Positions 1 through 11,676 of a DNA stretch of 11,676 bases are shown here, piece after piece. Under the pieces are notes generated by a model. It was not told the DNA's origin. It searched no databases and worked only from the letters and a program-made list of their open reading frames with translations. The stretch is taken from IMG/VR virus record IMGVR_UViG_2740892036_000002; one strand, 5' to 3'. How positions within the stretch are numbered: position 1 is the stretch's first letter; the number at the start of each line of letters is the position of its first letter. Origin of the DNA: a virus. Lineage: Duplodnaviria > Heunggongvirae > Uroviricota > Caudoviricetes. Position numbers and translations under genes: made by a program.

Positions 1-233
1 TCCGCATCACTGGTGGAAATGGAGGCGACGGTCAGTCCGGAAATATCAGCGTCAGCGGTGAAGGCGGAACATCGTACTGGGGTGGCGGTGGACGCGCAGG
101 CGCTGGCGGTGGCGTTAGCGGTAAGGCATATGGTTCAGGCGGAGGTGGTGCATACGATGCCGGTTATAGCGGAACCAGTATGACGGGCGGGAAAGGCGCT
201 GCAGGGATTTGTATTATCGAGGAGTTTGCATAA
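1..233 (+). CDS. Tail fibre protein, C-terminal fragment (5' end outside window), glycine-rich
   Basis: Open frame from the window edge (codons from nt 3) to TAA at 231-233, translating ...GGNGGDGQSGNISVSGEGGTSYWGGGGRAGAGGGVSGKAYGSGGGGAYDAGYSGTSMTGGKGAAGICIIEEFA*. It sits directly upstream of a tail-fibre assembly chaperone gene, with stop and start overlapping (TAATG). Gly-rich C-termini are typical of phage fibre distal domains. Assignment is by position and composition only. Confidence 0.5.
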   Translation, partial: RITGGNGGDGQSGNISVSGEGGTSYWGGGGRAGAGGGVSGKAYGSGGGGAYDAGYSGTSMTGGKGAAGICIIEEFA

Positions 234-646
234 TGAATGCGTCATATGCAGTTATTGAAAATGGGATGGTTGTGAATGTCATTGTCTGGGATGGTGAGGA
301 TGAATTCACTGTGCCGGATAATCTGCAGCTCATTAATATTTCTGATATCAGTGAGCAGCCCGGAATCGGCTGGGCGTATTCAGACGGGGTATTTACTGCG
401 CCGCTCCCTCCGGAACGTTCTCATGATGAACTGGTAGCTGACGCTGAACAGAAAAAACAGTCGCTGATAGACGCAGCAATGGTCAATATCAGCGTGATTC
501 AGTTAAAGCTGCAGGCCGGGCGCAAACTGACGCAAGAGGAAACTACCCGACTTAACGTTGTGCTGGATTATATCGAGGCTGTGACGGCAACAAATACCAG
601 CACCGCACCTGATATTATTTGGCCTGTTTTCCCTGCAAGCAGATAA
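233..646 (+). CDS. Tail fibre assembly chaperone (Tfa / gpG-like)
   Basis: 137-aa ORF starting at the ATG at 233, which overlaps the upstream stop. The C-terminal region (...LTQEETTRLNVVLDYIEAVTATNTSTAPDIIWPVFP) matches the conserved C-terminal motif of Caudovirales tail-fibre assembly proteins (...APDIeWP...). The upstream ATG at 209 given in the ORF track would run through the preceding gene's stop and is unlikely. Confidence 0.65.
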   Translation: MNASYAVIENGMVVNVIVWDGEDEFTVPDNLQLINISDISEQPGIGWAYSDGVFTAPLPPERSHDELVADAEQKKQSLIDAAMVNISVIQLKLQAGRKLTQEETTRLNVVLDYIEAVTATNTSTAPDIIWPVFPASR

Positions 647-657
647 ATACCGTCATT

Positions 658-677
658 TTGTGTGAATAACGGTACAA
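658..677 (+). promoter_or_regulatory. Candidate Ogr-dependent late promoter element (TTGT-N12-ACAA dyad) upstream of the sheath operon
   Basis: TTGT (658-661), a 12-nt spacer, then ACAA (674-677). P2-family late promoters carry a TGT-N12-ACA dyad centred near -55. Here the dyad centre is about 85 bp upstream of the FI start codon, in the only intergenic gap (647-752) ahead of the FI-FII-E-T-U-D operon. Confidence 0.4.
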
Positions 678-752
678 CTGCGCTTAGCTGCTTGTCAGAC
701 ACAATCACTTCAACATAGGGCGAAGCCTAATCCAATCAGGAGGTTCGCCACT

Positions 753-1925
753 ATGGCTCAGGATTACCACCACGGAGTGCGCGTTGTTGAAGTCAACGAA
801 GGCACTCGATCCATTACCACGGTGAGCACCGCCATCGTGGGCATGGTCTGCACGGGCGATGATGCCGATGCAAAAATGTTCCCTCTTAATAAACCCGTGC
901 TGATCACTGATGTGCTTACTGCCAGCGGTAAGGCGGGTGAATCCGGTACGCTGGCCCGTTCGCTGGATGCCATCGCTGACCAGGCAAAACCCGTGACCGT
1001 TGTTGTGCGTGTGCCGCAGGGTGAAACGGAAGAAGAAACCACGACCAATATCATCGGCGCAGTGACTGCTGAAGGTAAAAAAACTGGTATGAAAGCCCTG
1101 TTATCTGCCCAGTCACAGCTCGGTGTTAAACCGCGCATTCTCGGCGTGCCGGGGCACGATAATAAAGCCGTTGCTACTGAGTTGCTGGGCGTGGCGCAAA
1201 GCCTGCGTGGGTTTGCTTACCTGTCAGCGTATGGCTGCAAGACGGTGCAGGAGGCGATCACTTACCGTAAAAACTTCAGTCAGCGTGAAGGGATGCTGAT
1301 TTGGCCTGACTTTACTGGCTGGGACACGGTGCTGAATGCCGACGCAACGGCATATGCCACCGCCCGTGCGCTTGGTCTGCGTGCCAAAATTGATGAGCAG
1401 ACAGGGTGGCACAAAAGCCTGTCCAACGTGGGCGTGAACGGTGTCACCGGAATTTCTGCTGATGTGTTCTGGGATCTGCAGGACCCGGCAACTGATGCGG
1501 GACTGCTTAACCAGAACGATGTTACCACACTTATCCGCAAAGACGGCTTTCGCTTCTGGGGTTCCCGCTGTCTGAGTGATGACCCACTCTTTGCCTTTGA
1601 AAACTACACCCGCACGGCGCAGGTGCTGATGGACACGATGGCAGAAGCGCCAATGTGGGCGGTCGACAAACCGCTGAATCCGTCGCTGGCCCGCGACATT
1701 ATCGAAGGTATCCGCGCCAAAATGCGCAGCCTGATCAGTCAGGGCTATCTCATTGGTGGCGATTGCTGGCTGGATGAGTCGGTGAACGACAAAGACACTC
1801 TGAAAGCTGGAAAACTCACCATCGACTACGACTACACACCAGTGCCGCCACTTGAAAACCTGATGCTGCGTCAGCGCATCACCGATCAGTACCTGGTGAA
1901 TTTCGCCAGCCAGGTCAGCGCGTAA
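753..1925 (+). CDS. FI: Contractile tail sheath protein (P2 gpFI family)
   Basis: 390-aa ORF with a strong Shine-Dalgarno (CAGGAGG, 737-743) 9 nt before the ATG. Size (P2 FI is about 396 aa), N-terminus [14 protein letters not shown]... and position immediately before the tube gene fit P2-type sheath proteins. Confidence 0.93.
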
Positions 1926-1934
1926 GGGGACAAC

Positions 1935-2450
1935 ATGGCTTTACCACGCAAATTAAAACACCTCAACCTGTTTAACGACGGGAACAACTGGCAGGGGATC
2001 GTTGAGTCGCTGACGCTGCCGAAATTTACCCGCAAATATGAGAAGTATCGCGGCGGCGGAATGCCGGGAGCAGTGGATGTGGATCTGGGGCTTGATGACA
2101 GTGCGCTGGACACAGAATTTTCCATTGGTGGTACTGAACTGCTGCTGTTTAAGCAGATGGGCAAAGCCACGGTGGATGGCATCCAGTTGCGCTTTACCGG
2201 CTCTATCCAGCGTGATGATACCGGGGAAGTGCAGGCCGTGGAGCTTGTGGTGCGTGGACGTCACAAAGAAGTGGATTCCGGCGAGTGGAAGACGGGCGAA
2301 AGCAACACCACCAAAGTGACCAGTACCAACAGCTACGCGAAGCTGACTATCAATGGTGAGGTGCTCTATGAAGTGGACCTTATCAACATGGTGGAAATTG
2401 TGGACGGTGTGGACCTGATGGAAGCGCACCGCAACGCCCTCGGCCTCTGA
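1935..2450 (+). CDS. FII: Tail tube protein (P2 gpFII family)
   Basis: 171-aa ORF starting 9 nt after the FI stop. Size (P2 FII is about 172 aa) and its place in the sheath-tube-E-T order fit a myovirus tube protein. Confidence 0.92.
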   Translation: MALPRKLKHLNLFNDGNNWQGIVESLTLPKFTRKYEKYRGGGMPGAVDVDLGLDDSALDTEFSIGGTELLLFKQMGKATVDGIQLRFTGSIQRDDTGEVQAVELVVRGRHKEVDSGEWKTGESNTTKVTSTNSYAKLTINGEVLYEVDLINMVEIVDGVDLMEAHRNALGL

Positions 2451-2504
2451 TGTATCTGAACGGCGCGGAATGCCGCGCCAGAACCTAATTTACAGGACAG
2501 CAAA

Positions 2505-2807
2505 ATGAGCGATAAGCAGACTGAAAAGACCATTCAACTGGATACCCCCATCATGCGTGGTAAAACTGAAATCACCGAAATTGTGCTGCGTAAACCGCAG
2601 TCCGGTGCGCTGCGCGGTACACGCCTGCAGGCCATTATGGATATGGATGTGAACGCGATGATGACCGTGATCCCCCGCATCTCCAGCCCGGCGCTGACTG
2701 CACAGGAAATTGCAGAGATGGACCCGGCAGATCTCACTGCCATGTCGGTTGAGGTTGTCACTTTTTTGTTGAAGAAGTCGGTGCTTGCCGGTTTACCGAC
2801 AGCCTGA
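2505..2807 (+). CDS. E: Tail assembly chaperone gpE (zero-frame product)
   Basis: 100-aa ORF between the tube and tape-measure genes, preceded by AGGA. It contains the slippery heptamer T-TTT-TTG at 2762-2768 near its 3' end. Confidence 0.85.
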   Translation: MSDKQTEKTIQLDTPIMRGKTEITEIVLRKPQSGALRGTRLQAIMDMDVNAMMTVIPRISSPALTAQEIAEMDPADLTAMSVEVVTFLLKKSVLAGLPTA

Positions 2808-2941
2808 CGGTTGATGATCTGGTGGCAGATATCGCCACCATTTTTCACTGGCCGCCATCCGTTACTGACGTTATGCCGCTGACCGAAGTGCTGGAATGGC
2901 GGTATAAAGCGATTCAGAGAAGCGGGGCCAACGATGAGTGA
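2505..2941 (+). CDS. E': Tail assembly chaperone gpE+E' fusion made by -1 programmed ribosomal frameshift at 2762-2768
   Basis: After a -1 slip on T_TTT_TTG (zero-frame codons ACT|TTT|TTG) the -1 frame stays open for 58 more codons (FVEEVGACRFTDSLTVDDLVADIATIFHWPPSVTDVMPLTEVLEWRYKAIQRSGANDE*) and stops at TGA 2939-2941, overlapping the T start at 2934. The predicted product is about 145 aa (P2 E+E' is about 142 aa). This is the conserved G/GT-type chaperone frameshift found in front of tape-measure genes. Confidence 0.75.
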
Positions 2942-5900
2942 TAATAACCTGCGCCTGCAGGTCATTCTTAATGCGGTTGACAAACTCACCCGCCCATTCC
3001 GTGCTGCACAGGCCAGTTCGAAAGAGCTGGCTGGCGCAATCAGAAACTCCCGTGACGCATTAAAGCAACTCAATCAGGCGGGTAACAACCTGGAAAAATT
3101 TCGCAAGCTGCAGGCCGATAACAAAAAGTTAGGCGACAGGCTGAACTATGCCAGACAGAAGGCAAATTTGCTTAGTTCTGAGCTGGAAGCGATGGAACAA
3201 CCATCACAAAGGCATCTTGTGGCTTTAGGTCGGCAAACGCTGGCAGTCCAACGCCTGGAAGAACAACAAAAATATTTGCAGAAGCAAACGGCGCTTGTGC
3301 GTGCAGAACTGTACCGGGCGGGAATTTCTGCGAAAGATGATGCGGGAGCAACTGCCCGTTTAGCCCGTGAAACATCACGTTATAACCAGGAATTGTCGAA
3401 ACAGGAGGCGCGGCTGAAGCGACTGGGGGAAGCTCAGCGCAGGATGAATGCAGCGCGTGCCAGTTATGCCCGTTCGCTGGAGGTGCGCGATCGCATCGCA
3501 GGAGCCGGAGCCACTACTACGGCTGCAGGGCTGGCAATGGGGACGCCAGTGATGGCGGCAGTAAAAAGCTATACCAGCATGGAAGATGCCATGAAAGGTG
3601 TGGCAAAGCAGGTCAATGGTCTGCGTGACGATAATGGCATCCGCACTGCACGTTTTTATGAAATGCAGGATGCCATCAAAGCTGCCAGCGAACAGTTGCC
3701 GATGGAAAACGGTGCGGTGGACTTCGCTGCACTGGTTGAAGGTGGTGCGCGTATGAACGTCGCAAACCCTGACGACAGCTGGGAAGACCAGAAACGTGAC
3801 CTGCTGGCCTTCGCCAGTACGGCAGCAAAGGCGGCAACAGCCTTTGAGCTGCCAGCGGATGAACTGTCAGAAAGTCTGGGGAAAATCGCCCAGCTCTACA
3901 AAATACCAACCCGCAATATTGAACAGCTCGGCGATGCGCTGAACTATCTGGATGATAACGCCATGTCGAAAGGGGCGGACATCATTGATGTGATGCAACG
4001 TCTGGGCGGTGTGGCTGACCGTCTGGATTATCGTAAAGCGGCGGCACTGGGTTCCACCTTTCTGACACTGGGCGCTGCGCCGGAGGTTGCAGCCAGTGCA
4101 GCAAACGCGATGGTGCGTGAATTGTCCATTGCCACCATGCAAAGCAAGAGTTTCTTTGAAGGAATGAATCTGCTGAAACTCAATCCTGAAGTGATTGAAA
4201 AGCAGATGACGAAGGATGCGATGGGAACTATCCAGCGCGTGCTGGAGAAGGTGAACGCACTGCCGCAGGACAAGCGTCTGTCTGCCATGACCATGTTGTT
4301 TGGTAAAGAGTTTGGCGATGACGCGGCGAAACTGGCAAACAACCTGCCGGAACTGCAGCGTCAGTTAAAACTGACAGCGGGCAATGATGCGCTCGGCTCC
4401 ATGCAGAAAGAATCCGACATTAACAAGGATTCACTTTCTGCGCAGTGGTTGCTGGTCAAAACCGGAGCGCAGAACACCTTCAGCAGCCTGGGCGAAACGC
4501 TGCGCCAGCCGCTGATGGATATTCTGTACACGGTGAAAAGCGTCACGGGGGCGTTGCGTCGCTGGGTGGAAGCTAACCCGGAACTGACAGGCACACTGAT
4601 GAAAGCATCGGCTGTTGTGGCTGCGGTGACCGTCGGCCTCGGCACCTTAGCGGTGGCGCTGGCTGCAGTGCTGGGGCCGCTGGCAGTGATCCGTCTGGGA
4701 TTCTCTGTGCTGGGTATCAAAACGTTACCTTCCGTTACGGCAGCAGTAACTCGAACCAGCAGCGCGTTGTCCTGGCTGGCTGGCGCACCACTGGTACTGC
4801 TGCGACGCGGGCTTGCTTCATCGGGCAACGCTGCGGGTTTACTTACTGCACCGTTGTCATCTTTGCGCCGCACGGCATCACTGACGGGAAATGTCCTGAA
4901 AACTGTAGCAGGTGCGCCGGTTGCACTTTTGCGGTCTGGATTATCCGGTTTACGTGCTGTTGCTGTGATGTTTATGAATCCTCTGGCGGTACTGCGCGGT
5001 GGACTGGTCGCCGCAGGCACGGTGCTGCGAGTACTGGCATCTGGTCCACTGGCGATGCTGCGCGTTGCCCTGTATGCCGTATCTGGTCTGTTAGGTGCTC
5101 TGCTCAGTCCGATAGGTCTTGTGGTTACTGCACTGGCGGGCGTGGCGCTGGTTGTCTGGAAATACTGGCAACCCATCACCGCATTTCTTGGTGGCGTGGT
5201 GGAAGGATTCAAAGCGGCGGCAGGTCCCGTCAGTGCAGCATTCGAACCGCTTAAGCCCGTGTTCCAGTGGATTGGCGACAAAGTACAGGCGCTGTGGGGC
5301 TGGTTTACTGATCTGCTGACGCCCGTTAAGTCGACCTCTGCCGAACTGCAGAGTGCAGCGGCAATGGGGCGGCGATTCGGGGAGGCACTGGCGGAAGGGC
5401 TGAATATGGTCATGCATCCGCTGGACTCCCTGAAATCCGGCGTTTCCTGGTTGCTGGAGAAGCTCGGCATTGTCAGTAAAGAGGCCGCAAAGGCAAAACT
5501 GCCGGAAAGCGTGACGCGTCAGCAACCTGCGACGGTGAATGCAGACGGTAAAGTGATGATGCCATCGGGTGGTTTTCCATCATGGGGATATGGCTTTGCG
5601 GGGATGTATGACAGCGGCGGCTATATCCCGCGCGGGCAGTTTGGCATCGTCGGTGAAAACGGGCCGGAAATTGTTAACGGCCCGGCAAATGTGACCAGCC
5701 GGAGAAATACAGCTGCACTGGCTGCCGTTGTTGCCGGAATGATGGGCGTTGCTGCCGCGCCTGCAGAGCTTCCACCGTTGCACCCTTTGGCACTTCCCGC
5801 GAAAGGCGGCGAAGCGATGGTGAGTCGTGCAGCCACTGTGCCGCCCGTTCAACGGATTGAGGCACCGATGCAGATCATCATTCAGACGCAGCCAGGACAA

Positions 5901-6011
5901 AGTGCGCAGGATATTGCGCGGGAGGTGGCCCGCCAGCTTGATGAACGTGAACGCAGGCTGAAGGCAAAAGCCAGGAGTAACTACAGCGATCAGGGGGGAT
6001 ACGACGCATGA
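2934..6011 (+). CDS. T: Tail tape measure protein (P2 gpT family)
   Basis: 1025-aa ORF immediately after the E/E' chaperone pair. It has a coiled-coil-like, charged N-terminal third, a central hydrophobic block with tandem roughly 22-aa repeats, and a Gly-rich C-terminal region. Position and architecture are diagnostic for a tape measure. Confidence 0.93.
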   Translation: MSDNNLRLQVILNAVDKLTRPFRAAQASSKELAGAIRNSRDALKQLNQAGNNLEKFRKLQADNKKLGDRLNYARQKANLLSSELEAMEQPSQRHLVALGRQTLAVQRLEEQQKYLQKQTALVRAELYRAGISAKDDAGATARLARETSRYNQELSKQEARLKRLGEAQRRMNAARASYARSLEVRDRIAGAGATTTAAGLAMGTPVMAAVKSYTSMEDAMKGVAKQVNGLRDDNGIRTARFYEMQDAIKAASEQLPMENGAVDFAALVEGGARMNVANPDDSWEDQKRDLLAFASTAAKAATAFELPADELSESLGKIAQLYKIPTRNIEQLGDALNYLDDNAMSKGADIIDVMQRLGGVADRLDYRKAAALGSTFLTLGAAPEVAASAANAMVRELSIATMQSKSFFEGMNLLKLNPEVIEKQMTKDAMGTIQRVLEKVNALPQDKRLSAMTMLFGKEFGDDAAKLANNLPELQRQLKLTAGNDALGSMQKESDINKDSLSAQWLLVKTGAQNTFSSLGETLRQPLMDILYTVKSVTGALRRWVEANPELTGTLMKASAVVAAVTVGLGTLAVALAAVLGPLAVIRLGFSVLGIKTLPSVTAAVTRTSSALSWLAGAPLVLLRRGLASSGNAAGLLTAPLSSLRRTASLTGNVLKTVAGAPVALLRSGLSGLRAVAVMFMNPLAVLRGGLVAAGTVLRVLASGPLAMLRVALYAVSGLLGALLSPIGLVVTALAGVALVVWKYWQPITAFLGGVVEGFKAAAGPVSAAFEPLKPVFQWIGDKVQALWGWFTDLLTPVKSTSAELQSAAAMGRRFGEALAEGLNMVMHPLDSLKSGVSWLLEKLGIVSKEAAKAKLPESVTRQQPATVNADGKVMMPSGGFPSWGYGFAGMYDSGGYIPRGQFGIVGENGPEIVNGPANVTSRRNTAALAAVVAGMMGVAAAPAELPPLHPLALPAKGGEAMVSRAATVPPVQRIEAPMQIIIQTQPGQSAQDIAREVARQLDERERRLKAKARSNYSDQGGYDA
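4785..5160 (+). repeat. Tandem degenerate ~22-codon repeats inside the tape measure gene (APLxxLRxGL...)
   Basis: The translation shows five to six successive units: APLVLLRRGLASSGNAAGLLT / APLSSLRRTASLTGNVLKTVAG / APVALLRSGLSGLRAVAVMFMN / PLAVLRGGLVAAGTVLRVLASG / PLAMLRVALYAVSGLLGALLS / PIGLVVTALAGVALVV. They are diverged at the nucleotide level. Boundaries are approximate. Confidence 0.6.
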
Positions 6012-6493
6012 TGATGGTGCTGGGATTGTACGTGTTTATGCTGCGCACCGTGCCGTATCAGGAACTGCAGTATCAACGCAGTTGGCGACATGCGGCAAAC
6101 AGCCGGGTAAACCGTCGTCCGTCCACGCAGTTTCTGGGACCGGAAAACGACATGCTGACGCTTTCCGGTGTTCTTATGCCGGAGATAACAGGCGGCAGGC
6201 TGTCGTTGCTGGCACTTGAGCAGATGGCAGAACAGGGGAAAGCATGGCCTCTGATTGAAGGCAGCGGCACGATTTACGGCATGTATGTGATTGAGGGACT
6301 GAATCAGACTAAAACGGAGTTTTTCCGCGACGGTATGCCGCGCCGGATTGAGTTCACCCTGTCGCTCAAACGGGTGGATGAATCCCTGTCCGATATGTTC
6401 GGTGATCTCAGTGCGCAGCTGAATAATCTGCAGGGAACGGCAACATCTGCCTTAAGCGATATCAGTAAAACGGTGGGAGGGCTTCTGTCGTGA
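6008..6493 (+). CDS. U: Tail protein gpU
   Basis: 161-aa ORF whose ATG overlaps the T stop (ATGA at 6008-6011). Size (P2 gpU is about 159 aa) and position after T fit gpU. Confidence 0.88.
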   Translation: MMMVLGLYVFMLRTVPYQELQYQRSWRHAANSRVNRRPSTQFLGPENDMLTLSGVLMPEITGGRLSLLALEQMAEQGKAWPLIEGSGTIYGMYVIEGLNQTKTEFFRDGMPRRIEFTLSLKRVDESLSDMFGDLSAQLNNLQGTATSALSDISKTVGGLLS

Positions 6494-7590
6494 ATTTCAG
6501 CTCTGAACTGCTTAACAAAGGCAACAAAACTCCCGCATTCAGCATCAGTATTGAGGGCAGGGATATCACCACTGTGCTGGACAACCGCCTGATTGGGCTG
6601 ACGCTGACGGATAACCGGGGATTTGAAGCGGACCAGCTTGATCTGGAACTCGACGACGCCGATGGAAAAATCGTGCTGCCGCGCCGTGGTGCGGTCATTA
6701 CGCTGGCGCTGGGCTGGAAGGGGCAGCCGCTTTTCCCGAAAGGGGCATTCACGGTGGACGAGATTGAACACACTGGCGCACCGGACCGCCTGACTATCCG
6801 GGCGCGAAGTGCTGATTTTCGGGAAACCCTGAATACCCGCCGTGAAAAATCGTGGCATAACACCACCATCGGGGAAGTGGTGAAGGAAATAGCCGCGCGG
6901 CACAAGCTGAAGATGGCACTGGGTAAAGAGCTGTCGGATAAGCCCGTGGAGCATATAGACCAGACTAATGAGAGTGACGGCAGTTTTCTGATGCGACTGG
7001 CGCGACAGTACGGTGCCATCGCGTCGGTGAAAAATGGCAATCTGTTATTCATCCGGCAGGGGCAGGGCAAAAGCGCCACTGGTAAACCACTGCCAGTGAT
7101 CACTATCACACGCAAGGACGGCGACAGTCACCGATTTACCCTGGCAGATCGCGGAGCCTACACGGGCGTAATTGCCAGCTGGTTGCATACCCGTGAACCC
7201 GCGAAGAAAGAAAGCACCACGGTGAAGCGTAAGCGCAGAACTAAGAAGCAGAAGAAAGAGCCGGAAGCGAAGCAGGGCGATTACCTGGTGGGTACGGATG
7301 AAAACGTGCTGGTACTTAATCGCACCTATGCCAACCGGGGCAACGCTGAACGGGCAGCGAAAATGCAGTGGGAACGTCTGCAACGCGGCGTTGCGTCATT
7401 CTCGCTACAACTGGCGGAAGGGCGGGCAGATCTCTACACGGAAATGCCTGTGAAGGTCAGTGGTTTTAAACAGCCGATAGATGATGCGGAATGGACCATT
7501 ACGACTCTGACACATACCGTCAGCCCGGATAACGGTTTTACGACCAGTCTGGAGCTTGAAGTGAGGATTGATGATTTCGAAATGGAATGA
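6490..7590 (+). CDS. D: Tail protein gpD (late tail gene D)
   Basis: 366-aa ORF with a GTG start overlapping the U stop (GTGA at 6490-6493), preceded by GGGAGGG at 6475-6481. It is the last tail gene before ogr, as in P2, and has a basic K/R-rich stretch (KRKRRTKKQKKEPEAK). Confidence 0.88.
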   Translation: MNFSSELLNKGNKTPAFSISIEGRDITTVLDNRLIGLTLTDNRGFEADQLDLELDDADGKIVLPRRGAVITLALGWKGQPLFPKGAFTVDEIEHTGAPDRLTIRARSADFRETLNTRREKSWHNTTIGEVVKEIAARHKLKMALGKELSDKPVEHIDQTNESDGSFLMRLARQYGAIASVKNGNLLFIRQGQGKSATGKPLPVITITRKDGDSHRFTLADRGAYTGVIASWLHTREPAKKESTTVKRKRRTKKQKKEPEAKQGDYLVGTDENVLVLNRTYANRGNAERAAKMQWERLQRGVASFSLQLAEGRADLYTEMPVKVSGFKQPIDDAEWTITTLTHTVSPDNGFTTSLELEVRIDDFEME

Positions 7591-7680
7591 TGCTTCGCAA
7601 TGGAGAACTTTTAAGTTTGCAAAATGGAATAATGCGGTATCATTATTGTGAATTTAGCAAAAATGGGGAGAACTCGAAAA

Positions 7681-7899
7681 ATGATGATTTGCCCACTGTG
7701 TGGAAGTGCCGCCCATACTCGCAGCAGTTTTCAGGTATCTTCATTGACCAAAGAGCGTTACAACCAGTGCCAGAACATTAACTGCAGCCATACTTTTGTT
7801 ACCCATGAAACTTTTGTTCGTTCGATTGCAACGCCAAAAGAGTCAAATCCGGTTCAGCCGCATCCAATGAAATCAGGACAGGTGGCGCTCTCTCTTTGA
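7681..7899 (+). CDS. ogr: Ogr/Delta-family zinc-finger late transcription activator
   Basis: 72-aa product from the ATG at 7681, with GGGGAG 10 nt upstream. It carries the C-X2-C-X22-C-X4-C motif (CPLCGSAAH...QCQNINCSHTF) characteristic of P2 Ogr, and 72 aa is the P2 Ogr length. The ORF track's longer version (7648) adds 11 N-terminal residues and cannot be excluded. Confidence 0.85.
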   Translation: MMICPLCGSAAHTRSSFQVSSLTKERYNQCQNINCSHTFVTHETFVRSIATPKESNPVQPHPMKSGQVALSL

Positions 7900-7985
7900 C
7901 GCTGCCGCCATTTTGTCGCCATCGTTAAAAAACAGTGCTTCTAACATCATGATTTTAAACAGCTTAAATTTCAGGCAACAAAAAA

Positions 7986-8022
7986 CCCATCAACCTTGAA
8001 CCGAAATGGCGGGGTTGATGGG
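7986..8022 (-). terminator. Candidate intrinsic terminator for ybjL, in the prophage-host junction
   Basis: Perfect 10-bp inverted repeat CCCATCAACC (7986-7995) / GGTTGATGGG (8013-8022) with a 17-nt loop. On the - strand it is followed directly by a T-rich tract (complement of CAACAAAAAA, 7976-7985). It lies 113 nt downstream of the ybjL stop. Confidence 0.4.
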
Positions 8023-8134
8023 CTCCACAAAATGGGGACATCAAAGAAAAGCAGTGGCACTAATTAAGACTGATGCCCTGCGGAAAAGTTCTGCGGTTGT
8101 GCAAAAAAATTTCATTTTCAGGGCAACTTCAGTT

Positions 8135-9820
8135 TTATCCTAATCCTGGCCATACCATGACGATGATTGTCCCTGCCAGCGTCAGCAGGACGTTGGCGAT
8201 TGCGTAGGTGCCCGCATAGCCCAGCGCAGGGATGTTACTGCGAGCTGTATCACTGATGATCTCCATTGCCGGCGCGCAGGTGCGTGCGCCCATCATTGCG
8301 CCGAACAACAGTGCGCGGTTCATTCGCAATACATAAGCACCGAACAAGAAACAGATAACCACGGGCACAAGACTGACAATTAATCCGGCAATCAACATCT
8401 GACCGCCAATCGCGCCCAGGCCGTTATTAATACCGCTACCGGCGCTCAGACCAACGCCTGCCATAAACACCATCAAGCCGAACTCTTTCACCATGCTTAA
8501 TGCACCTTGCGGAATGTAACCGAAGGTCGGGTGGTTAGCACGCATAAAGCCCAGCATAATTCCGGCGAATAACAACCCGGCAGCGTTCCCCATGCCGAAA
8601 CTGAATGTGCTGAACTGGAAGGTGATCATCCCGATCATCAGCCCAATAACAAAGAAGGCGCAAAATGCCAGCAGGTCAGTGACCTGGCTGTGAATCGAGA
8701 TAAAGCCGATGCGATCGGCGATGGTTTTTACGCGACGGGCATCACCGCTGACTTGTAAAACGTCACCTTTGTTAAGCACGACGTTGTCATCTATCGGCAT
8801 CTCAATCTGGCTACGAATGACGCGGTTAAGGAAGCAACCGTGATCGGTCAACTTCAGTTGTGCGAGACGTTTACCTACAGCGTTATGGTTTTTAACGACC
8901 ACTTCTTCAGTGACGATACGCATGTCGAGAAGGTCACGATCGAAAACTTCTTTACCGTTACGGAAGCTGGGATCGAGTCGGGCATGGGCGTCGGGATAGC
9001 CTACCAACGCTATTTCATCGCCCATTTGTAGCACGGCATCACCGTCTGGATTTGCCAGAATCCCGTTACGTCGAATACGTTCAATGTAGCAGCCGGTTTG
9101 TCGATAAATACCCAGTTCACGCAGATTTTTGCCGTCGGTCCAGGCCACCAGCTCCGGGCCGACGCGATAGGCGCGGATCACCGGTAAATAAACCTTACGG
9201 TTGGCATCAGTGTCCAGGCCACGTTCGCGGGCGATTTGCTGGGCGCTGGTCTGTAAGTCCTGATGCTGCAATTTCGGCAAGTAACGCGCACCAACAATCA
9301 AACTCACCAGACCGATTAAATAGGTTAAGGCATACCCGAGGCTCAGATTATCCAGTGCCAGTGAGAGCTGCCTGCTTTCCATGCCGAAATGACGCAGTGT
9401 ATCGCCAGCACCGACCAGAACCGGTGTCGACGTCATAGAGCCTGCTAACATACCGGCCGTCAGGCCAATATCCCAGCCAAACAGCTTACCTAACCCTAAG
9501 GCGATCACCAGCGCACTGCCAACCATCACCAGTGCTAACATTAGGTAATTTTTCCCATCGCGAAAAAAAATGGAAAAAAAGTTCGGTCCGGCTTCGACCC
9601 CGACGCAGAAAATAAACAGCATAAAGCCAAGATTAAGCGCATCGGTGTTAATGCTGAAATGTTGTTGGCCTAATAACAGCGATACGACTAAAACGCCAAT
9701 GGAATTACCCAGTTGGATCGAACCAAGTCGTAACTTTCCGAGACATAGCCCAAGCGCGAGGACCACAAATAATAACAGAATGTAATTCCCATTTAACAAT
9801 TCGGCGACGTTTATATTCAC
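8135..9820 (-). CDS. ybjL: Putative transport protein YbjL (AAE / YidE-YbjL family, two internal TrkA-C-type domains)
   Basis: 561-aa ORF with a GTG start. The translation ([34 protein letters not shown]...VMVWPGLG) is recognised as E. coli YbjL: hydrophobic N- and C-terminal membrane halves around a soluble central region. Confidence 0.93.
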
Positions 9821-10089
9821 GGAGGCTAACTTCTTGTTTACTAGTAAGCTGTTGAAAGAAATGGTAATTTACGATAATGTTTTTTACCAGAATTCAGGGC
9901 GCAGATTCATTCAGCGCACCTAAACGATAGTAAAGTAACAATATATTTTACTAGTGTAATCACATTAGGTATCAACGGCTATATGAATTGCGTTGGCCTA
10001 TATTAGCATGGAATGCGAAGCGGCTTTATCTTACTGAACGCCACACTGGCGAAAAATGTGTTCGATAGACGCAGTGTCAGGAGGAACGA

Positions 10090-10467
10090 GTGAAACATAA
10101 ACAACGTTGGGCGGGGGCAATCTGCTGTTTTGTCCTCTTCATTGTGGTGTGCCTTTTTCTGGCGACGCACATGAAAGGCGCTTTTCGGGCTGCCGGGCAT
10201 CCTGAAATCGGCTTGCTATTTTTCATTCTTCCTGGAGCAGTTGCCAGTTTCTTTTCACAGCGTAGAGAAGTCCTGAAACCTCTATTTGGCGCAATGCTGG
10301 CGGCACCCTGTTCAATGCTCATTATGCGGCTGTTTTTTTCACCGACGCGCTCATTCTGGCAAGAGCTGGCATGGTTACTAAGCGCGGTGTTCTGGTGTGC
10401 GCTGGGGGCACTGTGTTTCTTATTTATCAGTAGTTTGTTTAAACCACAGCACAGAAAAAATCAGTAA
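10090..10467 (+). CDS. ybjM: Inner membrane protein YbjM
   Basis: 125-aa hydrophobic ORF with a GTG start, preceded by AGGAGG at 10077-10082, divergent from ybjL. Gene order ybjL-ybjM-grxA-ybjC-nfsA matches the E. coli K-12 locus. Confidence 0.85.
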   Translation: MKHKQRWAGAICCFVLFIVVCLFLATHMKGAFRAAGHPEIGLLFFILPGAVASFFSQRREVLKPLFGAMLAAPCSMLIMRLFFSPTRSFWQELAWLLSAVFWCALGALCFLFISSLFKPQHRKNQ

Positions 10468-10487
10468 AGCCCTCAACGCGAGGGCTT
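10467..10487. terminator. Stem-loop between convergent ybjM and grxA (possible bidirectional terminator)
   Basis: AAGCCCTC (10467-10474) / GAGGGCTT (10480-10487) with a 5-nt loop, overlapping the ybjM stop codon and 10 nt beyond the grxA stop. The flanking U-tracts are weak on both strands. Confidence 0.35.
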
Positions 10488-10496
10488 GTCAGACGA

Positions 10497-10754
10497 TCAG
10501 GCGTCCAGATTTTCTTTCACCCATGCAGCAAAATCGGTATAGCCGCCGATATGTTGCTGATCGACAAAAATCTGCGGCACGGTTTCTACGGGTTTACCTG
10601 CCTTTTGTTGTAGATCTTCTTTAGTGATCCCTTCCGCACGAATATCTACATACTGATACTGAAAATCATCGCGTTCATTGCTCAATTTCTCAGCCAGATC
10701 TTTTGCACGCACACAGTAAGGGCAACCCGAACGACCAAAAATAACGGTTTGCAT
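10497..10754 (-). CDS. grxA: Glutaredoxin 1
   Basis: 85-aa product from the ATG at 10752-10754 (- strand), with AGGAG 8 nt upstream. It has the CPYC active site (MQTVIFGRSGCPYCVRAKDLAEK...) and is recognised as E. coli Grx1. The ORF track's start at 10769 adds MRREI and lies within the Shine-Dalgarno, so it is unlikely. Confidence 0.93.
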   Translation of the reverse strand: MQTVIFGRSGCPYCVRAKDLAEKLSNERDDFQYQYVDIRAEGITKEDLQQKAGKPVETVPQIFVDQQHIGGYTDFAAWVKENLDA

Positions 10755-10913
10755 TATTTCTCTCCTCATAGATTTATGCCTGTAATGATCACGCTAAAAT
10801 GTATTCGCTGAAAGTAGGTTTAACCTGTTGCATTAATTGCTAAAAGCTATAACTGTTAAACACAATACAGTGAAAAGTTTTAGACTGAAGGCTCACTTTG
10901 CAGAGGGAAGCGT

Positions 10914-11201
10914 ATGCGCGCGATCGGTAAATTGCCTAAAGGCGTGTTGATACTGGAATTTATCGGAATGATGCTACTGGCGGTGGCGCTGCTGTCGGTA
11001 AGCGACTCCCTGTCGCTGCCTGAGCCATTTTCTCGGCCAGAAGTGCAGATTCTGATGATTTTTCTCGGTGTTTTGCTCATGCTTCCCGCTGCGGTGGTGG
11101 TTATTCTTCAGGTGGCAAAACGTCTTGCCCCACAGCTGATGAACCGTCCACCGCAATATTCACGTTCAGAAAGAGAAAAAGATAATGACGCCAACCATTG
11201 A
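10914..11201 (+). CDS. ybjC: Small membrane protein YbjC (DUF1418 family)
   Basis: 95-aa ORF with two hydrophobic segments, preceded by GAGGGA. It lies immediately upstream of nfsA and overlaps it by 17 nt, as in the E. coli ybjC-nfsA-rimK operon. Confidence 0.85.
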   Translation: MRAIGKLPKGVLILEFIGMMLLAVALLSVSDSLSLPEPFSRPEVQILMIFLGVLLMLPAAVVVILQVAKRLAPQLMNRPPQYSRSEREKDNDANH

Positions 11202-11604
11202 ACTTATTTGTGGCCATCGCTCCATTCGCCATTTCACTGATGAACCCATTTCCGAAGCGCAGCGTGAGGCGATTATTAACAGCGCCCGTGCGACGTCCAG
11301 TTCCAGTTTTTTGCAGTGCAGTAGCATTATTCGCATTACCGACAAAGCGTTACGTGAAGAACTGGTGACGCTGACCGGCGGGCAAAAACACGTAGCGCAA
11401 GCGGCGGAGTTCTGGGTGTTCTGTGCCGACTTTAACCGCCATTTACAGATCTGTCCGGATGCTCAGCTCGGCCTGGCGGAACAACTGTTGCTCGGTGTCG
11501 TTGATACGGCAATGATGGCGCAGAATGCATTAATCGCAGCGGAATCGCTGGGATTGGGCGGGGTATATATCGGCGGCCTGCGCAATAATATTGAAGCGGT
11601 GACG
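11185..11604 (+). pseudogene. nfsA: Oxygen-insensitive NADPH nitroreductase NfsA, interrupted after codon 140 by an IS1 insertion
   Basis: The ATG at 11185 opens MTPTIELICGHRSIRHFTDEPISEAQREAIINSARATSSSSFLQCSSIIRITDKALREELVTLTGGQKHVAQAAEFWVFCADFNRHLQICPDAQLGLAEQLLLGVVDTAMMAQNALIAAESLGLGGVYIGGLRNNIEAVT, recognised as the N-terminal 140 residues of E. coli NfsA (240 aa). From 11605 the sequence is an IS1 terminal repeat and the reading frame continues into IS-derived residues (GSDSNLLIVFYVQIMPDDLVMQLH). Confidence 0.85.
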
Positions 11605-11676
11605 GGTAGTGACTCCAACTTACTGATAGTGTTTTATGTTCAGATAATGCCCGATGACCTTGTCATGCAGCTCCAC
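11605..11676. mobile_element. IS1-family insertion sequence, terminal inverted repeat and adjacent end (element continues beyond window)
   Basis: GGTAGTGACTCCAACTTACTGATAGTGTTTTATGTTCAGATAATGCCCGATGACCTTGTCATGCAGCTCCAC matches the IS1 terminal sequence as I recall it (GGTAATGACTCCAACTTATTGATAGTGTTTTATGTTCAGATAATGCCCGATGACTTTGTCATGCAGCTCCAC) with 3 mismatches in 72 nt. I take this to be the insB-proximal end, which would put insAB on the - strand beyond the window. Confidence 0.85.

Follow-up and report, generated by a model that had tools for sequence, protein, structure and literature searches.

A P2-like prophage with a 186-type integrase, very probably integrated at the 3' end of the small RNA gene rybB

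The analysed stretch of DNA, called the window below, comprises 11,676 nucleotides. P2-type tail genes on the plus strand lead to ogr, the last gene of the prophage, and the first host protein gene beyond it is ybjL on the minus strand.

753-1925, plus strand: tail sheath, P2-type tail gene
1935-2450, plus strand: tail tube, P2-type tail gene
2505-2807, plus strand: E chaperone, P2-type tail gene
2934-6011, plus strand: tape measure, P2-type tail gene
6008-6493, plus strand: U, P2-type tail gene
6490-7590, plus strand: D, P2-type tail gene
7681-7899, plus strand: ogr, late-gene activator of the ogr/B type (Pfam PF04606, Ogr_Delta zinc finger, 6.7e-22)
8135-9820, minus strand: ybjL, aspartate:alanine antiporter family, 561 aa (Pfam Asp-Al_Ex and TrkA_C; RefSeq)

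The longest reading frame of ogr begins with the GTG at 7648, and the RefSeq start is equivalent to the ATG at 7681; in occupied genomes the gene is annotated as WP_000972391.1. Beyond ybjL follow ybjM, grxA, ybjC and nfsA. The closest relative of the window was strain 98208 (99.9% identical over 1-11604, with the same attL). In STEC1587, CFT073 and 98208 the occupied locus has the order rcdA-attL-int-cI...ogr-attR-ybjL, spanning about 33.5 kb in STEC1587. The empty locus of K-12 reads rcdA-rybB-ybjL.

Both ends of the window showed features of their own. Positions 1-646, the end of a tail-fibre gene plus an assembly gene (209-646, Pfam Caudo_TAP), had no near match in the phage collection and differ from STEC1587, which carries a DNA invertase at that position; the segment is a swapped host-range module. 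At the other end, nfsA (ATG at 11185) is broken after 11604 by the end of an IS1 element, with IS1 termini matching 11605-11676 at 100% identity. The nfsA::IS1 joint recurs in isolate F437, where rimK comes directly after it, and in 98208 nfsA is cut elsewhere by IS4. Nitrofurantoin resistance is known to arise through the loss of nfsA.

Between the end of ogr (7899) and ybjL (8135) lies a gap of 235 bp, inside which phage DNA meets host DNA. RefSeq records hold no feature there. The following elements were placed in it.

7903-7924, plus strand: P arm with tandem 186-type integrase arm sites (motif scan)
7942-7954, minus strand: candidate IHF-like site AATCATGATGTTA, between the arm sites and the core
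7965-7990, no strand: att core (three-way comparison, population breakpoints, allele survey, att annotation in Klebsiella phage 4LV2017)
7980-8058, minus strand: rybB, 79-nt sigma-E-dependent, Hfq-binding small RNA (RF00110 match)
7984-8024, minus strand: intrinsic terminator hairpin of RybB, with the U-tract at 7980-7985 (fold and structure line of the Rfam alignment)
8059-8091, minus strand: rybB promoter of sigma-E type (pattern match, kept in the Klebsiella flank)

To locate the junction, attR was compared with attL from occupied genomes and with the empty loci of K-12. The window contains attR only; attL was taken from related genomes that are 99.9% and 97.9% identical over the shared part. 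Aligned to empty E. coli loci, positions 7600-8500 of the window showed no homology to the left of 7965 or 7977. The converse comparison took the empty K-12 locus, from the end of rcdA to past the hairpin, as the query, which was split in occupied genomes: the left piece stops at the T of CCCAT, the right piece begins with AACAAAAAACCCAT, and the two overlap by 14 bp. The break against the empty locus and the reciprocal split with its 14-bp overlap thus place a real junction inside 7900-8134, and this junction is far beyond chance.

The sequence-only reading had proposed a prophage-host junction with ogr as the final phage gene, separated from ybjL by 235 bp that should include the right attachment site. 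The proposal held: tail genes and ogr lie on the left and ybjL on the right, the gene calls end at 7899 and start again at 8135, and the core was found at 7965/7977-7990. The alignment to the unoccupied K-12 locus that it had suggested showed the break in homology at 7965/7977, and a direct repeat of the core beside the integrase, at the far end of the prophage, was present at the attL of related genomes. Neither host homology extending through ogr and the tail genes nor a break well outside 7900-8134 was seen.

The three-way line-up of attB, attL and attR gave an exact common core of 14 bp, AACAAAAAACCCAT, at 7977-7990. It extends imperfectly to the left over 7965-7976, where 8 of 12 positions agree with the K-12-type attB (TAAATTTCAGGC on the phage side, TAAGTTTTAGAT in K-12) and all agree with the allele of the O157/CFT073 type. 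In STEC1587, AACAAAAAACCCAT is repeated at attL, 88-101 bp past the int stop codon; it also occurs at the attL of 98208 and CFT073, there with a cargo gene between attL and int. This cargo is a DUF4917 gene in 98208, whose prophage also carries a retron set of the Ec78 type with reverse transcriptase, AAA ATPase and PtuB HNH protein (L014 9655-10638 and 18988-22237), and a 270-bp open reading frame in CFT073 (L005 2505-2774). In strain 2c3 a 363-bp open reading frame with no Pfam match lies between ogr and the P arm (L006 2447-2809).

As attL retains the host-type left flank and attR the phage-type left flank, both strand exchanges are deduced to fall within the 14 bp, and an overlap of 6-8 bp, probably at the int-proximal end as annotated for 186, is predicted inside them. 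A GTTTT...AAAAC dyad in the K-12 attB was considered as the overlap region and rejected, as its 7-bp centre differs between attP and attB; lysogens hold the host type of this centre at attL and the phage type at attR, which puts the crossover to the right of the dyad. No clear inverted core-type Int sites were found around the 14 bp. The functional core is best put at about 26-27 bp (7964/5-7990), with only the right-hand 14 bp invariant.

An Rfam scan of the window returned one match, RybB (RF00110) on the minus strand at 8055-7977, scoring 105.3 bits (gathering score 40; E = 2e-21) and covering model positions 1-79 of 79. The RNA runs from its 5' end GCCACUGCUUUUCUUU (8058) to the U-tract (7980) and includes the 5' seed GCCACTGCTTTTCTTT, a 12-pair stem and UUUUUU. 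The 5' seed is the functional region of RybB. The same match was obtained in the empty K-12 locus (L002 4013-4091), between rcdA (ending at 3996) and ybjL (ending at 4171), and again in the record of Klebsiella phage 4LV2017, at the end that derives from the host. The promoter fits the sigma-E consensus and the sigma-E promoter form known for rybB: it comprises a -35 element GAACTT (8091-8086), a 16-nt spacer and a -10 element TCTTA (8069-8065), with +1 at the G at 8058, so that GAACTT-N16-TCTTA, as a pattern match, stops 6 nt before +1.

The perfect 10-bp stem hairpin noticed at 7986-8022 is real: CCCATCAACC (7986-7995) pairs with GGTTGATGGG (8013-8022). In the fold of the minus-strand RNA the stem lengthens to 12 pairs, with UUUUUUGUU after it. 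For the 81-nt segment with the hairpin the folding energy was -24.1 kcal/mol (z = -2.6), a value reached by 4 of 200 shuffled sequences. A simple terminator scan of 7600-8300 found nothing, though folding and Rfam both show the terminator; it was missed because its loop exceeds the 8 nt allowed by the loop rule of the scan. On the minus strand the 14-bp core reads ATGGGUUUUUUGUU: the final five stem bases of the RybB terminator, then the U-tract.

The hairpin had been taken simply for the terminator of ybjL, an assignment that follows from the blank between ogr and ybjL in RefSeq, and the integration target for an anonymous intergenic terminator without a separate gene. Part of this is well founded, for the hairpin lies on the ybjL strand, 113 bp downstream of the ybjL stop codon, and no other terminator-like site was found in between, so that read-through from ybjL probably also stops at it. 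However, the full-length covariance-model match covers exactly the hairpin and the 45 nt upstream of it, a promoter of sigma-E type stands with correct spacing between ybjL and the 5' end of the RNA, and the literature names the site rybB (PMC3032704). An anonymous target is therefore very unlikely, and the hairpin belongs to a separate gene with a promoter of its own. As read from the covariance model, the fold and the promoter pattern, the hairpin is RybB's own terminator and the target of integration is the 3' end of the small RNA gene. The link to rybB was derived from Rfam and the E. coli W genome paper.

The integrase shares 56% identity with 186 Int and 35% with P2 Int. It contains the Pfam domains Int_N and Phage_integrase, and the residues invariant in all three integrases include R207, H281, R284, H307 and Y316. 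The lysogeny module is likewise of the 186 type (CI, CII, Fil). A candidate excisionase at the position of apl had no Pfam match and a weak likeness to 186 Apl over 20 residues.

Directly after the ogr stop codon lie the arm sites TGCCGCCATTT and TGTCGCCATCG, 11 bp apart. The other arm carries the same pair, TGCCGCCACTT and TGTCGCCACTT, inside the 3' end of int (L001; L014 of strain 98208; L005 of CFT073). The four sites match the 186 arm consensus YAYCGCCAYTY, as annotated in NC_001317, at 10, 8, 10 and 10 of 11 positions, and all four have G where the consensus has A. The arm motif has been given as tgccGCCActt (PMC3448106). The pair is conserved in phage KP12 and in the diverged phage ESSI2_ev129, whose Int is 86% identical and whose attP flanks are 72% identical, with the same core and both arm pairs kept. 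The 25-bp repeat after ogr was also considered as the relic of an old int 3' end. This was rejected in favour of arm sites because of the likeness to the 186 consensus, the internal 11-bp periodicity and the conservation in a phage with 72% identical flanks.

An exact search of the arm with the IHF consensus gave no site; the candidate at 7942-7954 has one mismatch (12 of 13 positions against WATCAANNNNTTR). At the aligned position ESSI2_ev129 has AATCAATAGATTA, a perfect match, and P2 and 186 have an annotated IHF site at the same relative position; binding of IHF at 7942-7954 is predicted from these likenesses. The order of elements equals that of the annotated attP of P2 and 186, namely late activator, P arm, IHF site (here a candidate), core, RDF region and a P' arm overlapping int.

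The structural genes and their order are P2-like, and P2 uses imperfect secondary sites, so that canonical integration with P2 Int specificity at a secondary site like P2 locI was weighed as well. The tests refuted it and leave it next to no likelihood. The 27-bp core of P2, AAAAAATAAGCCCGTGTAAGGGAGATT, reached at best 15 of 27 positions in 7850-8134 and 16 of 27 in the whole window, and the P2 arm motif TGTGGACA (tgTGGaCa) is absent, with no TGTGGAC(A) on either strand of 7850-8134. Int shares just 35% identity with P2 Int, and the lysogeny module has CI, CII and Fil of the 186 type. The sequence-only reading had seen no canonical P2 core and had suspected an integrase of different site specificity; on both points it was right, the enzyme being of the 186 type.

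Compared with P2, the layout of ogr, P arm, IHF site (here a candidate), a core of the 27-bp class, Cox/RDF sites and a P' arm overlapping the int 3' end is the same, whereas core sequence, arm motif (TGTGGACA in P2) and integrase differ. The system shares with 186 the integrase clade, the arm-site sequence, the tandem 11-bp arrangement on both arms and the order of elements. The attB of 186 is the 3' end of the tRNA-Ile gene ileY, and the logic is again that a small RNA gene has its 3' end restored. In contrast to 186, the target here is the terminator of an Hfq-dependent small RNA and not a tRNA, and attP contains no tRNA-like sequence; the core has 14-27 bp here and 36 bp in 186, and int contains the P' arm sites, as it does in P2.

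Taken with a probability of roughly 0.93, 7900-8134 is the attR of an inducible-type Peduoviridae prophage of about 33 kb, with P2-like structural genes and a 186-like lysogeny module and integrase, that is inserted at the 3' end of rybB between rcdA (ybjK) and ybjL.

The attP rebuilt from the two halves was found intact in the virion-derived Klebsiella phage KP12 (96.7% over the full 275-bp query), where ogr, P arm, core, P' arm and int are contiguous. Phage 4LV2017, the Kp48xx series and vB_EcoM-813R9 are prophage-derived records with the attL half, the attR half or both, 96.6-98.5% identical; 4LV2017 was deposited with annotated attL and attR and ends in Klebsiella rybB. Int was at least 99% identical in 15 phage records, and at this level it is shared by the Klebsiella phages 4LV2017 (Elveevirus), KP12 and Kp48xx and by Escherichia phage vB_EcoM-813R9. 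The Klebsiella phages differ in host genus and in the length of exact identity, which amounts to 19 bp (CAGGCAACAAAAAACCCAT) in Klebsiella and to 14 bp with the K-12-type allele of E. coli.

In a survey of 5,426 complete E. coli genomes, about 22% were occupied at the rybB site. All of 7600-8500, that is, the same ogr-attR-ybjL junction, was covered in 1,115 genomes; the empty site was undivided in 4,227 and split with the 14-bp overlap in about 1,196. A rearrangement scar or defective remnant in place of a functional att site is extremely unlikely, even though the window has another insertion-sequence event (IS1 in nfsA) and one record places the region on a 42-kb 'plasmid': those 1,115 genomes all have the identical junction, related genomes have the complete prophage with intact int, the KP12 virion genome holds an intact attP, and the prophage of E. 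coli HS at the same site is inducible and re-integrates (bioRxiv 10.1101/2024.06.12.598711).

The empty site was found in two alleles of the 12 bp that separate rybB from the rcdA stop codon, GATAAGTTTTAGATAAC... in K-12 and GATAAATTTCAGGCAAC... in O157:H7 (for example the empty attB of genomes H164-H188, compared with K-12 L002 3999-4026). The O157 allele equals the phage side. The attL of CFT073 (L005 2358-2384) has the O157-type form and gives a direct repeat of 27 bp; because the phage-side core has the same sequence as this allele, the repeat in lysogens of that background measures 27 bp instead of 14 bp. The O157-type empty attB may be the footprint of an earlier excision, in which case the site records past lysogeny; alternatively, it may be ancestral.

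Prophages at this site have been described before. 'rybB ncRNA' is listed as a P2-like insertion site in E. coli W, B and Crooks, and Rybb*W, Rybb*B (with retron Ec86) and Rybb*Cr are the prophages found at rybB (PMC3032704). Nilsson and colleagues reported one common site, with rybB unnamed, for PhiECO1 (HS), PhiECO2 (ATCC 8739), PhiECO3 (CFT073) and PhiSEN1 (PMC3448106); the CFT073 prophage was confirmed here between rcdA and ybjL with the same core. NC-MV of strain NC101 was placed between ybjL and rcdA (PMC12803456). In the Phollow study the HS prophage was deleted with an arm 'starting 77 bp downstream of ogr', and the inducible prophage was brought to de novo lysogeny with a rebuilt attB (bioRxiv 10.1101/2024.06.12.598711). 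A distance of 77 bp past ogr corresponds to 7977 in the window, the first base of the exact core. Bobay and colleagues already pointed to small RNA genes as integration targets (PMC3603311), and a P2-family insertion beside the small RNA gene cyaR (ryeE) is known (PMC3032704; PMC3603311).

The expectation that defining this att site would identify a new insertion locus thus did not hold, as rybB was already listed (PMC3032704), is the site shared by PhiECO1, PhiECO2 and PhiECO3 (PMC3448106) and has been re-lysogenised in HS. The insertion site, its use and the general logic are already known, and the junction is a common prophage junction. The prophages at rybB (Rybb*, PhiECO1-3, NC-MV) share the site between rcdA and ybjL, CI, CII and Fil of the 186 type, and int and ogr as end genes, and differ only in cargo, tail-fibre modules and single bases beside the core. 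PhiECO3 of CFT073 has the same core and arm sites, with the 27-bp repeat against 14 bp exact here.

According to the mechanism proposed here, attP would consist of the ogr stop codon, two arm-type Int sites, the IHF-like site, the core, about 95 bp with probable RDF and IHF sites, and two arm-type Int sites within the 3' end of int. Strand exchange by the tyrosine integrase would take place within AACAAAAAACCCAT, and the recombinant joints would be ...TTTCAGGC-AACAAAAAACCCAT-TTATGTAAACGGG... in attP and ...TAGAT-AACAAAAAACCCAT-CAACCTTG... in the emptied attB. Since the phage carries the same core bases, attR rebuilds a complete rybB, and only the DNA past the U-tract becomes phage. The RNA-coding sequence in the lysogen was unaltered through the whole U-tract; beyond it GUUAUC is changed to GUUGCC. 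With rybB rebuilt and its RNA unchanged, integration should be neutral for rybB, ybjL and rcdA.

At attL a small hairpin of the phage itself, AACCCGUUUACAUAAAUGGGUU, would join the shared U-tract and could terminate transcription of int. It has 9 pairs followed by the U-tract, and the whole attL segment folds no better than shuffled sequences (z = -0.19); judged by the form of the hairpin, it probably ends int transcription. The proposed logic would be the same as that of phage insertion into the 3' ends of tRNA and tmRNA genes, the usual targets of 186-type integrases. The locus is a further clear example, not new in kind, of a 186-type integrase that uses the terminator end of an Hfq-dependent small RNA in a restoring manner. 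Its value lies mainly in annotation: a well-studied regulatory RNA occupies the seemingly empty 235 bp, along with its promoter and an entire attachment arm of the phage. With the core known exactly (7977-7990, extended to 7965), prophage boundaries can be drawn cleanly, and clean deletions and re-integrations can be designed, as was done in E. coli HS.

The prophage might also be less than fully neutral, if transcription of ogr and the late operon ran antisense into rybB at attR and induction or leaky ogr expression lowered RybB. This is unlikely; if true, the envelope-stress feedback of sigma-E would be altered in about one-fifth of E. coli strains. The plus strand has a bulged hairpin (GGUGGCGCUC...GACGCUGCCGCC) with AUUUUGU behind it at 7881-7915, a stretch that shares bases with both the ogr stop codon and the first arm site. 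The segment folds no better than shuffled sequences (z = -0.7) and is a weak, possible candidate for the ogr terminator, whereas the terminators of P2 and 186 are clear and separate.

Two further observations were made in comparison records. The 'terminator of the lysogenic operon' in the P arm of 186 (L009 431-458) starts with AGGCAACAAAAAGGCC..., and the core here (7972-7990) reads CAGGCAACAAAAAACCC...; this likeness may be due to chance, or the core of the lineage may have grown from the phage's own int terminator. Record L008 (NZ_CP148327.1, 'plasmid pZ1323HEC0475-2', 42,418 bp, circular) carries in 1-17088 the invertase, tail genes, ogr, attR, rybB and ybjL up to potH; this chromosomal DNA in a plasmid record may reflect either a misassembly or a circle that was really excised.
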